Source: Gemmatimonadales bacterium (GTDB taxonomy: Bacteria > Gemmatimonadota > Gemmatimonadetes > Gemmatimonadales > GWC2-71-9). Taken from it: a stretch of DNA of 64,000 nt. The stretch is from positions 64,001-128,000 of the forward strand of contig JBFJCP010000001.1 of the NCBI GenBank assembly GCA_041615815.1, written 5' to 3'. Each line of letters begins with the position of its first letter. Position 1 is the stretch's first letter. This document shows positions 24,001-33,000 of the stretch, in pieces. A program made the position numbers.

Positions 24001-27000
24001 GGAGATCGTAAAGGCCGCGGTCCCGTGGCTCAACCGTCTCTCCACCATCGTGGCGCCGTTCACCCCCGGGGGTCGGGATGGACGGCCGCGCGCGGCGTTG
24101 GCTGCCGTACTCGAGTCGGACGAGGAGGCGCTCGGGACGCACGAGCTCGTGCCCGTACTCTTAGGAGTGTTGAGCTTTACGGAACGTCCGGTGCGCGAGA
24201 TCATGACCCCGCGCACCGAGATCGTGGCCGTTCGCGAGGGCGCGGCGTTGGAGGAGGTCGGACAAATCTTCGCCGAGTCCGGATACTCGCGCATTCCGGT
24301 CTACCGCGAGACCCTCGACAACATCGTGGGGATGATCTACGCCCTCGATCTCCTCAGGGTCCTGCCCGCCGAGGAGCTTCCGGTGCGGCCCGTCACGGTG
24401 GCGCCGGCGTCCAAGCGGTGTGCAGATCTGCTGTTCGAGATGCAACGCGATCGCCGACACCTCGCCGTGGTCCTCGACGAGTTCGGCGGCACGGCCGGCA
24501 TCGCGACGTTTCAGGACCTCTTGGAGGAGCTCGTGGCTGAGGTGTTTGCCGATACCGATGCCCGCGCTGGCGCCGCCTCCGCCGCCGTGGAGATCGTGGA
24601 GGTCACCGGGACCACGCCCTGCGACGAGCTGTCTGCCCAGTTTGGGGTCGCCCTGCCGGCCGATGCCGAAACGGTGGGCGGGCTCTTAGCGCGGGCCGCC
24701 GGCCGTATTCCCCAGACCGGCGAGCGTTACGTGGTGGCCGGTCTGGAATTCGACGTCTTACAGGCCACGCCCACGCGGGTGGAGCGTATTGTGGTCCGGC
24801 GCAGCCCGGTCCCCTTGGCCTATTTGGGAGGCGCTCCGTGAGCACCGTTGGCCGCCGGTTTCGCCGGTATTTCTTCGTGGGCTTGGTCGTGATCGCGCCC
24901 GTCGGGCTCACAATCTTCGTCCTCCGGTGGATCTTCGAGACGCTCGACGCCATCCTCGGCAATCCACTTCGGGCTGCCCTTGGCGTGCGCATCCCCGGGC
25001 TTGGCTTCGTCCTCCTCACCGTTTTCGTCGTGATCGTGGGGTGGATCGTGCACCGGGCCGCCGGCCGTCAACTGCTCCACTGGTGGAACGAGGCGCTCGT
25101 CCGTTTCCCGCTCACCGGTCGCATATACAACGCCGTCAGCCAGATCATCCAGTCGATGGTGGGGGAGCAGCGGAAGCTCTTTCGCCGCACGGTGCTGATT
25201 CCGTATCCCACCGAGGGACTCTGGGCGATCGCGTTCGTGACCAACGAAGACGCCCCCATGATGTCGCGCATCGTGGGTGAACCCTGCCTCAACGTGTTCG
25301 TCCCATCCACGCCGAACCCGACCACCGGGTTCATGCTCGTCGTGCCGCGCACGCGCGTCCGCGACACAGCCATCACGGTGGAGGATGCGATGAAGCTCAT
25401 TCTCTCAGGTGGAGCCGTGAGTCCGAGCGAAACCCCTTCGGTGCGCCAGCGCCGGGGTCTCGACCTCGATTCCCTCTTGCGAGACAACTGATGGTGGACC
25501 CGGTGACACCGGATTACGCGGAACTCCGGCATCTCGCCGAAGCCGGTGAGATCGGGCAGTTCCTCGCGGCGGCAAGAGGGCTTCACGCGTCGGACCTGTC
25601 CGACGTGCTCGCGAGGCTCGAGCCCGACGTCCGACTCCGCATCGTTCGGGAGCTCCCCCCGGAGCTGGTCTCGGACGCGCTGGCCGAGATGGAGGAGGAA
25701 GAGCATCCGGAAGAAGTGCTGGCGGCACTGCTTCCCGACCAAGCGGCCCACATCGTGGAGGAGTTGGAGGTCGACGACGCCGTCGACCTGATCGGGGATC
25801 TGCCACCGGAGAGCGTCGCGCCGATCCTGAGCCGGGTGGCCGATCGAGCCGAGATCGAGCGACTGCTCGGTTACGACGAGGACACGGCGGGCGGCCGGAT
25901 GAACGCAGCGGTCCTCGCGGTGGAGGAGTCGGCGACGGCGCAGGAGGCCATTGACGAGATCCGGCGCCAGGCCGAGGAGATCGGCGAGTTCTACCAAGTG
26001 TACTGCGTCGACGATCGCTTTCGGCTCGTCGGAGTCCTCCCGCTGCAACGAGTGGTCATTGCGCCACCATCCACACGCGTCAAGGCACTGATGGAGGCAC
26101 CGGTGGCCGTCGCCACACCGGACCAAGACCAGGAAGAGGTCGCACGCCTCATGGGCCGATACAACGTGCCGGCCCTCCCGGTGGTGAGCGCCGACGGGAA
26201 ACTGATTGGGCGCGTCACCTTCGACGATGTGATGGACGTCGTGGAAGCCGAGACGACCGAAGACATCTTGAAGTTCGGTGGCGTGCCGGGCGACGAGCAG
26301 TTGGGTGGCGACTGGCGTCAGGCTGTCCGCAGTCGGCTGCCATGGCTCTCGCTCAACATGTTCACCGCATTCCTCGGTGCCGTGGTGGTGTATTTCTTTC
26401 AGCATGCCATTGAAGGGGTGCTCGCGCTCGCCATGCTGATGCCGGTGATCGCCGGCCTGGGTGGAAACGCCGGTACGCAGGCGCTCGCCGTGACGGTGCG
26501 CCGAATTGCCGTGGGCGGAATCGCGCCGGGACAGGGATGGCGTCTCGTCGGAAAGGAACTCGTGGTCGGCTTGGTGAACGGGTTTGCCGTGGGCGTGATG
26601 GTGGCCGCCGTGACCGGCTTGGTGGGGCTCGGGTGGGAGTTGGGACTCGTGGTGTTGCTGGCAATGTGGGGGAATCTGATTCTGGCAACCTTCTTTGGCG
26701 CCACCGTTCCCCTCATCCTCGAGCGTCTGGGCGCAGACCCGGCGGTCGCAAGCTCGACCTTCGTGACGGCGTTCACGGACGTCTTTGGATTCCTGCTGCT
26801 GCTCGGACTCGCCGCGGCGGTGCTATTACCGGTCGGGTAGGGGACCGTCGGGTTGCCAGAAGGCTAGGTATGACACGAACTTCCGAGGTGAGCGGGTCTG
26901 GTCTCGTCGAGGGGATTCGGGCGGGGAACGTGGCGGCGCTGGCTCGCGCGATCACGCTGGTGGAGAATGGCCGGGAGGGGTATGAGACGCTGCTCTCGGC

Positions 27001-30000: not shown

Positions 30001-33000
30001 TTCGGCCTGGTGCTGTGCGCGCTGTACGATCGGACGACGGCGCGATTCTTCCAGGTAACCGCCTCCGACGTGGAAGAGCTCACAGGCATGCCGGCGGGCG
30101 ACGCCACACGGGGCGGCAAGTTCCGTCGCGGCCGTTCGGTCCCTGGTCGCGGCACCGGCTTAGCCGGCGCAGGCGAGCACAACTACCACCAACGCATTCA
30201 GGAAGAGAAACAGCGCCATTATGCCCAGATCGCACAACGGCTGTTCGAGCTGGCGCGGGGGGATGCGGTCCGCGGCATCGTCCTGGCGGGGACGGGCGCC
30301 GAAGCCGATGCGGTCCGCTCCCATCTGCATCCTTACGTCGAGAAGCGTTTGATGAGCGCCGTACGCTTGAACCCCAAGTCCGCGACTCCGCAAGAGGTGA
30401 TGGAGGCGGTCCTGGAAGCGCGACGGGAGCAAGAGCGCCAGTGGGAGGTGCAGGCGATTGAGACGATGGCGGAAGGCCTCGGGACGGGGTGGGCCGTGAA
30501 CGGCGCGGAACCGACGCTCACCGCTCTGGCGCGCGGCCAGGTGCGTACGCTGCTCGTGGACCCGATGGCGGAGCTCGGCGGCTACCGGTGTCATGATTCC
30601 GGACGCCTGACGACCGTACAAGACCACTGTGAGGGCGAGGGTGTTCCGGAACCGATGCCCGACATCATCGACGAAGCCATCGAGGACGCGCTACGCCAAG
30701 GCAGCCATGTCGAGGTGCTGGAAGACCAATCCGCCAGGAACCAGGTGGACGCACTCGCGGCGCTTCTGCGCTTCAAACACCGGTGACGATCTGCTTGTCA
30801 CCTCCAATCGCCATTACTAGGTTGCGCGCACAATGAGCGGCCAGGCAACTTCTCGGACGCCCTCGGACAGCCAGGCGCGACCCATTCGGATCTTGGTGGG
30901 AAAGCCTGGGCTCGACGGCCATGACCGTGGTGCGAAAGTCGTGGCGGCAGCCCTGCGGGATGCCGGCATGGAAGTCATCTACACTGGGCTTCACCAAACA
31001 CCGGAGATGATCGCGACGGCCGCGGTGCAGGAAGACGTGGACGTGGTGGGGTTGTCCATTCTCTCCGGTGCGCACATGACGCTCTTCCCACGAGTCCGGG
31101 CCCTGCTGGCCGACGCCGGACGCGACGACGTCCTGCTCATTGGCGGCGGGATCATCCCGCATGAGGATATCGAGCGGCTCGAGCGGGAAGGTGTGGCGAA
31201 ACTCTTCACGCCGGGGACGACCACCAGCGACATCATCGATTTCATTCACACGTGGGCGGCGAGTCGCGCCGAGTGAGCGGAACGTCCACTGGCCACCGAA
31301 GCCGGCTTCGGGAGCTGACCGAGGCGTACCGCGAACTCGCGGTGCGGTTGTCGCAGGGTGGTGGCCCCGACCGCATCGCCCGCCAGCACCAGCAGGGGAA
31401 GCTGACCGCGCGCGAGCGCGTGCAGCAACTGCGCGATGCAGACACGCCCTGGATCGAGATCGGACTGCTCGTGGCGTATGACCGTTACGAGGGCCAAGCG
31501 CCGGGTGCGGGGGTCGTCACGGGCGTGGGGATCGTGGCGGACCACCATTGTGTGGTCGTGGCAAACGACGCCACGGTCAAGGCAGGGTCGTGGTGGCCCG
31601 AAACGATCAAGAAGATGCTGCGCGCGCAGGAAATCGCGATGCGGCAGCGTATACCGATCATCTATCTCGTCGATTCGGCTGGCGTGAATCTCCCCTACCA
31701 GGGTGGCGTGTTTCCGGGACAGTACGGGGCGGCCCGACTGTTCTACTACAACTCGATCATGCGGCGCTATCTCCACGTGCCCCAAATCAGCGCCGTGATG
31801 GGCCAGTGCGTTGCCGGGGGTGCGTATCTGCCGGCGCTTTCCGATGTCATTTTCATGGTAGAAGGCACGTCGTTCATGGGACTGGGTGGGCCCAATCTGG
31901 TGCAAGGCGCCACCGGGCAGCGCGTCGATGCCGAGACGCTCGGCGGGGCGGTCACGCACACCACCAAGAGCGGCGTCGCCCACTACCGGGCACGGAACGA
32001 CCACGAGTGCATCGAGCAGCTTCGTGAGTACGTCGGCCGACTCCCCGCGGGCCGTGCGTCGAGCGTCGCACCAGACCGAGCACCGCAGGCCCCCGCCCGT
32101 CTTCCGGCCGAATTGTACGACATCCTGCCGCCGGACCACCGCATGGCGTATGACATGCGTGACGTCTTGGCGTGTCTCTTGGATGGAGGCGTGCTCGACG
32201 AGTTCCAACCCGACATGGCAAAAGAGATGTTGTGCGGCCACGGTGCGGTTGCCGGGCAACCGGTGGCTGTGATCGCCAACCAGCGCGGGCTGATCAAGCG
32301 AGACGGTAGCGGACCCCCGCGGATCGGCGGGATCGTCTACACGGAGAGTGCGGAGAAGGTTGCGTACTTCATTGAGACCGCCAGCCGGGAACGGATCCCG
32401 TTGTTGTTCGTGCAGGACGTGAGCGGATTCATGGTGGGACCGGACGCCGAGCAGTCCGGCATCATTCGCGCTGGTGCTCGGTTCGTCGAGGCCATGGCGA
32501 CAGCGGTGGTTCCGAAGATCGTCCTGACCGTCAACCACGCCTCCGGAGCCGGGTACTATGCCATGGCGGGGCAGGGGTTCGACCCGGATTTCATCTTTTC
32601 CTGGCCCACCGGCCGTATGGGTGTCATGGAAGGCGATTCCGCGGTGCGCGCGGTGTTCGGCGATCGTGTCGAGGACCCATCCAGCGCATCGGCGGTCGAG
32701 CAAATGCGCGAAGACTATGACCATCAGTTGGACGCGAAGTACGCGGGTGCCCGGGGATTCGTGGACACGATCATCGCCCCGGAGGACACGCGGTCAGTGC
32801 TCGCGTTCGCCCTCTCCGTCACGCGGCACCATCGCGGACCGCACATCGGACCTTTCGTGCTGCCCACGCAGGAGTCTCCTGATACATGACACGCCTCGTC
32901 GCATCCATGTCCGCCGCGTTCGCCTCGTCCTTCTTTTTGTTCGGGTGTGGCGGCGGACCCGCACCCGCACCGCCACCGGCACCGGCATCCGCAGCAACCA

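Follow-up and report, generated by a model that had tools for sequence, protein, structure and literature searches.

A Balon-like aeRF1 homologue encoded inside a B12-dependent acyl-CoA mutase operon of Gemmatimonadales: a probable hibernation factor in a catabolic operon

A B12-dependent acyl-CoA mutase of a Gemmatimonadales bacterium is encoded by two subunit genes; why does a gene for a Balon-like homologue of aeRF1 lie between them? The arrangement was found in a window of 64,000 nt (assembly GCA_041615815.1, contig JBFJCP010000001.1, positions 64,001 to 128,000), from the first base of which all coordinates below are counted. The locus reads as follows:

26870-27919, plus strand: gene for the MeaB G-protein chaperone (Pfam MeaB 1.8e-94; TIGR00750 338 bits, cut-off 240.75)
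27909-29552, plus strand: large, substrate-binding subunit of an ICM/HCM-like acyl-CoA mutase, 547 aa (Pfam MM_CoA_mutase 747 bits)
29513-29517, plus strand: Shine-Dalgarno-like GGAGG within the mutase gene (sequence read)
29521-30786, plus strand: baeRF-type aeRF1 homologue (Balon-like), 421 aa, P0001 (profiles and predicted fold)
30833-31276, plus strand: B12-binding small subunit, 147 aa (Pfam B12-binding 8.9e-26; TIGR00640 173.5 bits, cut-off 57.45)
31252-32889, plus strand: acyl-CoA carboxyltransferase (Pfam Carboxyl_trans 432.8 bits)

The order meaB, large subunit, eRF1-like gene, small subunit was re-derived in agreement with the survey's finding, as was the 32-nt overlap it had reported between the eRF1-like gene and the mutase large-subunit gene: the ATG at 29521 precedes the mutase stop codon at 29550-29552. 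The GGAGG is spaced 3 nt from this ATG and 6 nt from a GTG at 29524. The meaB and large-subunit genes overlap by 11 nt; the carboxyltransferase gene, which recurs downstream as the next gene of the block in the loci of relatives, overlaps the small-subunit gene by 25 nt. An overlapping start, 20-32 nt into the 3' end of the mutase gene and with Shine-Dalgarno support, was observed in 76 of 119 loci, and a longer block running from MgtE to AtuA is likewise conserved. The gene belongs to a long run of co-directional genes that overlap one another, and it frequently begins ahead of the mutase stop; on these grounds we predict operon co-transcription with partial translational coupling to the mutase; co-expression with the mutase operon is plausible from this arrangement.

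The identity of the eRF1-like protein was sought by profile and by fold. In Pfam, the best match was baeRF_family10 over residues 149-302 (2e-14, 54.5 bits, cut-off 27.1); family12 (6.2e-9), family2 (3.9e-7) and families 5 and 3 match as well, which leaves the protein loosely assigned at family level. NCBIfam returned the MSMEG_1130-family ribosome hibernation factor (1.5e-20), the Rv2629 family (3e-13) and aRF1/eRF1 (1.3e-5), and the Pfam and NCBIfam scores closely reproduced those of the survey. Against the curated models NF052288, NF052289 and NF052287, the protein scored 73.6, 49.7 and 44.2 bits, short of equivalog rank at cut-offs of 480, 320 and 330; the class-I release factor model TIGR03676 (aRF1/eRF1) gave 24.2 bits, below its cut-off of 234.7. 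When a profile of the protein's group was searched against the PDB, Balon MSMEG_1130 was best (8v9j_z, 1.8e-12) and aligned over its full length (26-391 to 18-374 of 375), with further matches to Rv2629 (8v9k_z, 5e-6) and the Balon of Psychrobacter urativorans (8rd8_B, 1.6e-4). Foldseek comparison of an AF2 model (pLDDT 88.4, pTM 0.82) again placed 8v9j_z at the top (E 7e-25, TM 0.71) along with 8v9l_z, ahead of aRF1/eRF1, and gave 8rd8_B a TM of 0.65 and 8v9k_z one of 0.62. The profile and fold matches to 8v9j_z bear out the original reading of the protein as aeRF1-like, with Balon, MSMEG_1130 and Rv2629 as its nearest characterised kin.

Residues 1-29 of the protein are predicted to be disordered; beyond them the following parts were distinguished:

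29608-29964, plus strand: N domain, residues 30-148 (AF2 secondary structure; basic, pI 10.4)
29965-30345, plus strand: middle domain, residues 149-275 (Pfam baeRF_family10 region; AF2 model)
30109-30120, plus strand: R-G-G-K, residues 197-200, at the release-factor GGQ position (phmmer alignment to aRF1 3agk)
30346-30783, plus strand: C domain, residues 276-421 (acidic, pI 4.8; invariant G339-Q340, C-terminal R417-F418)
30565-30666, plus strand: two-strand C-domain insert, residues 349-382 (AF2 model; alignment to MSMEG_1130)

Inspection of the 421-aa sequence yielded no NIKS string. The glutamine of GGQ was found in 0 of 33 aligned relatives, the column being occupied by K, R or a degraded motif, and literal GGQ strings, present in 2 of 52 proteins, are located elsewhere in those proteins. 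The GGQ-equivalent loop has low model confidence (pLDDT 50-69 for residues 190-220), varies in length among relatives and is less conserved in the clade of mutase-linked copies than in the stand-alone clade. The C-domain insert, with model strands at 354-357 and 376-379 and with Cys357 and Cys370, lies at the position of Balon's EF-Tu-binding beta-hairpin; one sub-clade among the linked copies has lost it (L045-L048, with split matches 49-348 and 383-420). The relaxed loop and the loss of the hairpin could reflect drift from the canonical role. Balon has an N-domain HP motif in contact with the decoding centre: H108-P109 of the window's protein is not conserved in the clade, the HP of MSMEG_1130 aligns to R-E, and the accessible part of the published text supplies no residue numbers to anchor this motif.

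The pathway served by the operon depends on which mutase it encodes. In methylmalonyl-CoA mutase (MCM), Tyr89 and Arg207 hold the substrate carboxylate (P. shermanii numbering, the column being fixed by the Y89F mutant 5req), and the human, mycobacterial and P. shermanii enzymes have Y and R at these columns. The window's large subunit has F77 (28137-28139) at the Tyr89 column and Q195 (28491-28493) at that of Arg207; the motifs read WTMRQFAGF and [11 protein letters not shown]. Among the loci, 95 have both F and Q and another 19 have only the F, with Y/R solely in a second mutase, whose separate large subunit is encoded elsewhere in the genome. F and Q at these positions we take to be the signature of isobutyryl-CoA mutase (ICM); a literature search for the meaning of the F/Q signature found no paper that gives it. 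The best PDB match was HcmA (4r3u, 536 bits), ahead of human MCM (497 bits). On the basis of F/Q in place of Y/R, identity as a methylmalonyl-CoA mutase was rejected and the enzyme is classed as isobutyryl-CoA-mutase-like, its substrate assignment being putative. Of the survey's suggested link to propionate or branched-chain catabolism, the first half thus names the wrong pathway and the second comes nearer.

How widely the linkage extends was determined in two sets of loci. The protein was searched for in an order sample of 201 genomes, with families f1 (86 genomes), f2 (87) and f3 (27). It was present in 78/86 genomes of f1 and 26/27 of f3; in the 87 genomes of f2, only two weak matches (E about 1e-4) were returned. 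The window's own genome has a single match, as do most f1 genomes. At 30/30 best loci of this sample the gene has both flanks, being preceded by the large subunit and followed by the B12 subunit. The second set comprised 80 further loci from species-representative genomes: the large subunit was upstream in 77 (the rest being two at a contig end and one rearranged), the small subunit was downstream in 73 (seven were cut by a contig end), and both flanks were found in 70, the ten misses being nine contig ends and the one rearrangement. At the rearranged locus (L140), the gene still adjoins an IcmF-type fused mutase and a small subunit. The survey had called the linkage order-wide; it is strong at the loci themselves, but of the three families sampled only two show it, and it has one origin. 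A position kept over two families, combined with an overlapping, Shine-Dalgarno-supported start (76/119), is more than a neutral hitch-hiker need show.

In a phylogenetic tree, the 39 linked copies formed one clade (SH-aLRT 99), indicating that the linkage is one event. Because these copies share one origin, the many linked genomes are not independent evidence of shared function. Values of dN/dS were 0.08-0.20 in 11 linked pairs as compared with 0.20-0.27 in two stand-alone pairs. Across both clades 22 columns are invariant. The stand-alone clade has 116 conserved columns, and in 66 of these 80% or more of the linked copies carry the same residue; linked-clade-specific conserved positions number only seven, several of which are conservative substitutions. 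The two groups have similar median pI (8.65 linked, 8.8 stand-alone), and the MSMEG_1130 model scores the linked copy higher (73.6 bits) than a stand-alone paralogue (51.8 bits). Together, these observations argue that the linked gene is still working and does what its paralogues do. Elsewhere in the order, stand-alone and short paralogues adjoin genes for HPF-CSD, CBS-pair, Hsp20, BON, Usp and Cpn60, a neighbourhood that matches contexts described for Balon in the accessible text of PMC10901736 and for baeRF-1 in that of PMC6514570. A stress or hibernation cluster (RaiA/HPF, Hsp20, OsmY-type) thus accompanies the same-order paralogues and not the window's copy, which lies in the mutase operon.

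We consider it likely that the protein is an A-site hibernation factor of the conventional kind, that its gene is transcribed as part of a catabolic operon through a single inherited insertion, and that the mutase does not need it. The gene product would be a catalytically dead aeRF1 homologue of the Balon/MSMEG_1130 type. Judged by homology, its most likely job is to fill the A site when ribosomes idle or stall in starvation, probably with EF-Tu-GDP. A single insertion, in a common ancestor of two families of Gemmatimonadales, would have placed the gene between the large- and small-subunit genes of the isobutyryl-CoA-mutase-like enzyme, perhaps along with a HAD hydrolase gene, and it would have been inherited vertically since. 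Most linked genomes have no other full-length homologue of Balon; supply of hibernation factor would then be tied to expression of the catabolic operon.

Whether that tie was itself selected is a separate matter. The placement may be adaptive, such that the supply of a factor still acting on the ribosome tracks a starvation-induced operon for branched-chain or short-acyl-CoA catabolism. The position kept over two families with both flanks in place (30/30 and 70/80 loci), the supported overlapping start in 76/119, the status of the gene as sole full-length homologue in the window's genome and most f1 genomes, and purifying selection on the linked gene all fit such regulatory coupling. With one origin, however, the conservation may equal inherited synteny, the MgtE-AtuA block being conserved too; the gene has been cleanly lost in several genera, and unrelated genes occupy the same slot in f2. 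On balance we regard selected coupling as possible, though unlikely.

The survey had also offered recruitment of the protein to serve the mutase. In four of four f1 genomes checked that have no linked gene (G053, G002, G165 and G163), the meaB, large- and small-subunit genes are intact and adjacent at 74-78% identity, and a gap of 3-20 nt separates the two subunit genes. Large-subunit identity to the window's protein is 74-78% without the gene and 74-83% with it, bar one locus at 65%; for the small subunit the values are 74-80% and 71-85%. In f2, the slot between the subunit genes is taken by unknown ORFs, by a methyltransferase or by 6 kb of unrelated genes. An obligate accessory subunit would be present wherever the mutase is kept, and the four f1 genomes and the f2 genomes have the orthologous mutase but not this protein. 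The mutase does not seem to need the eRF1-like protein, and service to it is accordingly disfavoured. A genuine fused form was rejected, the sole longer match (P0003) being a frameshift-ridden read-through.

These comparisons bear on a more specific form of recruitment, in which the eRF1-like protein would bind MeaB or one of the two mutase subunits, acting as scaffold or G-protein partner by analogy with Balon and EF-Tu-GDP. The gene does lie exactly between the subunit genes and overlaps that of the large subunit, it remains next to an IcmF-type fused mutase and small subunit at rearranged L140, and its GGQ-equivalent loop is relaxed, with the hairpin gone in one sub-clade. Nevertheless, the operon stays intact and its subunit identities stay in the same range when the gene is absent, only seven conserved positions are specific to the linked clade, no genuine fusion exists, and MeaB belongs to a GTPase class other than that of EF-Tu. 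We judge such binding very unlikely. About as improbable is co-option of the linked Balon paralogue into B12-mutase biology through nucleotide-dependent binding of MeaB or of the free small subunit; if true, it would form a physical link between ribosome shutdown and either cofactor loading or flux in the isobutyryl-CoA-mutase-like pathway. For family 10 of baeRF-1, Burroughs and Aravind suggested activity in peptidyl-tRNA hydrolysis or ribosome rescue; that the window's protein is active in this way is extremely improbable: baeRF_family10 is its best Pfam model, the accessible text of PMC6514570 describes that family as keeping a conserved glutamine, and the window's protein retains the Gly-Gly pair, but the glutamine column is K/R or degraded in 33/33, the GGQ strings of 2/52 proteins sit elsewhere, and the loop varies in length with low model confidence.

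Among known systems, aRF1/eRF1 and Pelota/Dom34 have a homologous fold and the same domain order as the window's protein, which differs from them in having no GGQ glutamine or NIKS and in its poorer global shape fit (TM 0.25-0.47). The bacterial host presumably has its own RF1 and RF2. The mutase resembles the split IcmA/IcmB and HcmA/HcmB systems, with separate large and small subunits and a MeaB-type chaperone, although HcmA has Ile where the window's large subunit has Phe. Pfam PF18854 (baeRF_family10) matches the middle domain above its gathering cut-off (54.5 vs 27.1 bits) and shares the N domain, core and Pelota-like domain with two-strand insert shown in the supplement of Burroughs and Aravind (2019), the family-10 members given in the accessible part of that work being Actinobacteria. 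The published family keeps a well-conserved catalytic-loop glutamine according to the accessible text of PMC6514570, whereas the window's clade has K/R or a degraded motif (33/33). The Balon group (MSMEG_1130 8v9j/8v9l, Rv2629 8v9k, Psychrobacter urativorans 8rd8) differs in that identity to the window's protein is about 20%, far under the NCBIfam equivalog cut-offs, in that the window's copy is surrounded by a mutase operon and not by stress genes, and in that one linked sub-clade is without the hairpin. Common to both are the three-domain aeRF1-like fold in its ribosome-bound shape (TM 0.62-0.71), a full-length profile alignment, the missing GGQ glutamine and NIKS, the two-strand C-domain insert and, through the paralogues of the order, a neighbourhood of HPF and stress genes.

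Balon was recognised as a hibernation factor only recently, and to our knowledge its regulation is poorly understood. The 421-aa Balon-like protein described here is probably a conventional hibernation factor that would occupy the ribosomal A site; its gene would have been inserted once between the mutase subunit genes, inherited since, and now be co-transcribed with the mutase operon. The survey's finding of a factor gene placed between the two subunits with a 32-nt overlap was borne out by gene order and by the position of the factor's ATG at 29521, 32 nt before the end of the mutase stop codon; the Pfam and NCBIfam scores it gave for the protein were matched within a small factor on repeat. 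The genes of the locus are as follows.

Gene order at the window locus
22416-23657, +, CorC/CNNM-type gene 1
23654-24841, +, CorC/CNNM-type gene 2
24838-25491, +, DUF502
25491-26840, +, MgtE
26870-27919, +, MeaB
27909-29552, +, MM_CoA_mutase large subunit, 547 aa
29513-29517, +, GGAGG ahead of the factor's ATG at 29521 (sequence read)
29521-30786, +, baeRF-like ORF, 421 aa (Balon-like factor)
30833-31276, +, B12-binding small subunit, 147 aa
31252-32889, +, carboxyltransferase
32886-35777, +, S8 peptidase, 963 aa
35778-37163, +, AtuA

These genes form a co-directional stretch of about 15 kb (22416-37163), most of them overlapping by 1-32 nt, with seemingly unrelated functions. Across f1 (the window's family) and f3, two of three sampled Gemmatimonadales families, synteny is kept from MgtE or MeaB through to AtuA. 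A promoter scan returned one promoter-like site where 2.1 were expected, and all terminator-like sites lay within genes.

Related loci are labelled Gemmatimonadales, Gemmatimonadaceae and Gemmatimonadota. The survey had described the linkage as order-wide, which held for f1 and f3 but not for f2: among 201 sampled genomes of the order, the factor was found in 78 of 86 f1 and 26 of 27 f3 genomes, and the 87 f2 genomes yielded two weak matches only (E about 1e-4). At the best loci of this sample, the large-subunit gene lay directly upstream and the small-subunit gene downstream in 30 of 30 (29 of 29 without L018, a locus from the unpublished genome G077), and the order was identical in seven f3 and six further f1 loci. 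Among 80 loci from species-representative genomes, the large subunit was upstream in 77 (the exceptions are two loci that a contig end cuts and L140, which is rearranged), the small subunit was downstream in 73 (seven are cut by a contig end), and both flanks were seen in 70. In a tree of 52 proteins (IQ-TREE, quick search, midpoint root), the 39 linked copies formed one clade (SH-aLRT 99), separate from the stand-alone and short paralogues encoded elsewhere in the order. Because of this single clade, the striking count of hundreds of genomes with one linkage reduces to one inherited arrangement, and the phylogeny indicates that the linkage is a single inherited event. Homologues in the phylum outside Gemmatimonadales were only 25-28% identical, and no mutase, B12 or MeaB gene was found within about 5 kb at any of eight such out-of-order loci.

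The rearranged locus (L140:387-5530) comes from one Gemmatimonadales MAG. There an IcmF-type fused mutase takes the place that the large-subunit gene usually has upstream of the Balon-like gene. Its 1164-aa ORF has B12, MeaB and mutase parts and lies on the opposite strand, at a distance of 54 nt from the factor start; the factor, small subunit and carboxyltransferase are still present.

A start supported by a Shine-Dalgarno (SD) sequence and overlapping the mutase 3' end by 20-32 nt occurred at 76 of 119 loci, and because of it translation of the factor may be coupled to that of the mutase; at 28 of the 119 there is no overlapping start. One could go further and regard the arrangement as an adaptive regulatory coupling, an explanation that overlaps with that of a conventional factor inserted once. 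The overlapping starts speak for it, and the single origin of the linkage weighs on the other side; we consider it possible, if rather unlikely.

The survey had also proposed that the factor was recruited to serve the mutase. Its place between the two subunit genes would suit such physical co-option, but the mutase is retained where the factor is missing. The linked gene is missing from four f1 genomes (G053, G002, G165 and G163), all of which carry an orthologous large subunit (74-78% identity) with the small-subunit gene directly after it, at a gap of 3-20 nt, and meaB upstream. Orthologous large and small subunits (70-73% and 72-77% identity) also occur in f2, with other genes between them: a class-I methyltransferase in G013, about 6 kb with an M20-type peptidase and a chorismate mutase-prephenate dehydratase-DAHP synthase fusion in G007, and two unknown ORFs in G004. 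Whether the factor is present or not, subunit identity to the window's mutase proteins covers the same range. The slot is evidently permissive and the mutase evidently persists without the factor, which is dispensable for the mutase operon; as a whole the evidence speaks against a role of the factor in the mutase, and co-option is improbable.

Several further observations concern the same slot. At L154:2909-5038 (+), in an f2 genome, a 709-aa ORF with CM_2, prephenate dehydratase and DAHP synthase domains lies between the mutase subunit genes. At 11 of 30 and 24 of 73 loci, from f1 as well as f3, factor and small subunit are separated by a HAD-IA hydrolase gene, which may have arrived with the Balon-like gene as one cassette. 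Examples are L017:789-1493 (-), L032:5291-5989 (-) and L050:7182-7889 (+); the product is REG-2-like (94 bits, below cut-off), and the gene is absent from the window. A search for fused forms scored 8000 candidates and gave a single match, the 1143-aa metagenome protein P0003; in such a search the lack of a fusion is weak evidence. P0003, apparently a fusion of MeaB, mutase and eRF1-like parts, was rejected as a frameshift read-through artefact: correct segments alternate with out-of-frame stretches rich in Arg, Pro and Ala, which stay open because of the high GC content.

The annotation of the neighbouring enzyme was corrected. The large subunit carries WTMRQ-F-AGF and a second motif of 11 residues. 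At the two positions concerned it has F and Q; the methylmalonyl-CoA mutases of human, mycobacteria and P. shermanii show Y and R there, and HcmA shows I and Q. The first column was fixed by the Y89F mutant structure 5req. We take the Tyr89 and Arg207 positions to hold the methylmalonyl carboxylate, and Phe and Gln there to be the mark of isobutyryl-CoA mutase (ICM); literature searches for ICM signature residues found nothing usable. F/Q was observed at 95 loci; another 19 have F alone. Y/R is confined to a second large subunit, encoded at G000:C14 in the window's genome and at the f2 loci L144-L148. Judged by these residues, the operon, with its carboxyltransferase and AtuA, is better described as isobutyryl-CoA-mutase-like than as methylmalonyl-CoA mutase, and therefore would not belong to a propionate pathway, which the survey had proposed alongside branched-chain catabolism. 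The Y/R-type gene of the window's genome (G000:C14:25381-26979; L156:5998-7557, -), whose product is methylmalonyl-CoA-mutase-like, lies between an FBPase gene and that for arginyl-tRNA synthetase. Neither a B12 small subunit nor MeaB was detected in the surrounding 6 kb or so, and a canonical HPF gene is about 9 kb away on the same contig.

Searched singly against PDB sequences with phmmer, the factor matched only Aeropyrum aRF1 (3agk, 5e-6), with R-G-G-K (residues 197-200) opposite the release-factor GGQ. In A1, an alignment of the factor with its relatives, 0 of 33 rows have glutamine in the GGQ column, and 22 columns are invariant, including D170-R171, G218-E219, E229, R232, G339-Q340 and R417-F418. 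The A1 profile ranked 'Ribosome hibernation factor Balon (MSMEG_1130)' first in the PDB (8v9j_z, 1.8e-12, 26-391 against 18-374 of 375), followed by aRF1 and eRF1, then Rv2629 (8v9k_z, 5e-6) and P. urativorans Balon (8rd8_B, 1.6e-4). An AlphaFold2 model built on A1 (mean pLDDT 88.4, pTM 0.82) was of low confidence only at residues 1-29 and the GGQ-equivalent loop. Foldseek against the PDB also placed ribosome-bound MSMEG_1130 top (E 7e-25, TM 0.71), in agreement with the survey's view that the nearest relatives are ribosome hibernation factors; other Balon structures gave TM 0.62-0.66, and aRF1, eRF1 and Pelota mostly 0.25-0.47. A two-strand insert in the C domain (residues 349-382) aligned with that of MSMEG_1130, at the position of the EF-Tu-binding hairpin described for Balon (PMC10901736). 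Because of profile, fold, GGQ loss and C-domain insert, we classify the protein as a Balon-type aeRF1 homologue, predicted to be catalytically dead: a new member of a known family, scoring far under the curated NCBIfam equivalog cut-offs. No placement of the Balon HP motif was found in it, and PADLOC gave no match. An active peptidyl-tRNA hydrolase is hardly credible given the absence of the GGQ glutamine.

Burroughs and Aravind suggested that the C-domain insert is a degenerate zinc ribbon (PMC6514570). Two of its cysteines, Cys357 (30589-30591) and Cys370 (30628-30630), are kept in 69-79% of linked copies and, among the eight stand-alone paralogues, in seven or more.

Conservation of this gene position is apparently a new observation, as literature searches found no printed report of it and no paper joining baeRF and mutase. 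The search for baeRF gave only Burroughs and Aravind (PMC6514570), with 'mutase' and 'MeaB' absent from the main text and supplement searched. 'Mutase' is likewise absent from the main text and three supplement files of the Balon paper (PMC10901736), though a neighbour list in two others could escape. Balon with hibernation and mutase returned nothing but one unrelated review, Gemmatimonadota with hibernation factor nothing but one unrelated paper, and a 2025 preprint on the evolution of hibernation factors contains neither 'mutase' nor 'Gemmatimon'. In this large lineage of soil and marine bacteria, most of them uncultured, the sole Balon homologue of full length usually lies inside a catabolic operon and may often be translationally coupled to it, a concrete and testable case of how hibernation-factor supply could be wired to metabolism.

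Linked copies were compared with stand-alone ones, which are about 42% identical. Both are under selection, with pairwise dN/dS of 0.08-0.20 in 11 linked and 0.20-0.27 in two stand-alone pairs. Conservation in seven or more of the eight stand-alone paralogues was seen for 116 columns, and at 66 of these 80% or more of the linked copies carry that residue too. Conservation specific to the linked clade is confined to seven positions (K57, E59, K67, K71, N74, S141 and G259), several of them conservative swaps. The two clades are similar in charge, with median pI 8.65 versus 8.8, a basic N domain and an acidic C domain. Against a fully canonical Balon role count a GGQ-equivalent loop that is less conserved in linked than in stand-alone copies, and a deletion of residues 349-382 in one linked sub-clade (L045-L048 in A1, and split matches in 18 genomes of the order sample). 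Genomes of that sub-clade also with a short paralogue are G093, G153, G032, G074, G062 and G071.

In the window's genome the linked copy is the one Balon homologue, and there are two HPF genes, one of them a fusion with a cold-shock domain (HPF-CSD; L157:1267-2115, -) that adjoins a phosphoribosyltransferase gene with no Balon gene alongside. HPF (Ribosomal_S30AE)-cold-shock fusions recur beside stand-alone paralogues elsewhere (L040:4044-4649, L044:7182-7967, L052:6830-7411 and L053:8409-9131). The stand-alone paralogue kept in G165 adjoins an Hsp20 and a CBS-pair gene. Short paralogues comprise the middle and C domains only; those at L051-L055 (e.g. L051:6007-6756, +) are about 250 aa long and neighbour HPF or HPF-CSD, Cpn60, Usp and CBS genes. 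Taken together, stand-alone and short paralogues adjoin genes for HPF-cold-shock-domain fusions, CBS-pair, Hsp20, BON, Usp and Cpn60 proteins, and in this they share the HPF and stress-gene contexts set out in the publications on Balon (PMC10901736) and baeRF-1 (PMC6514570).
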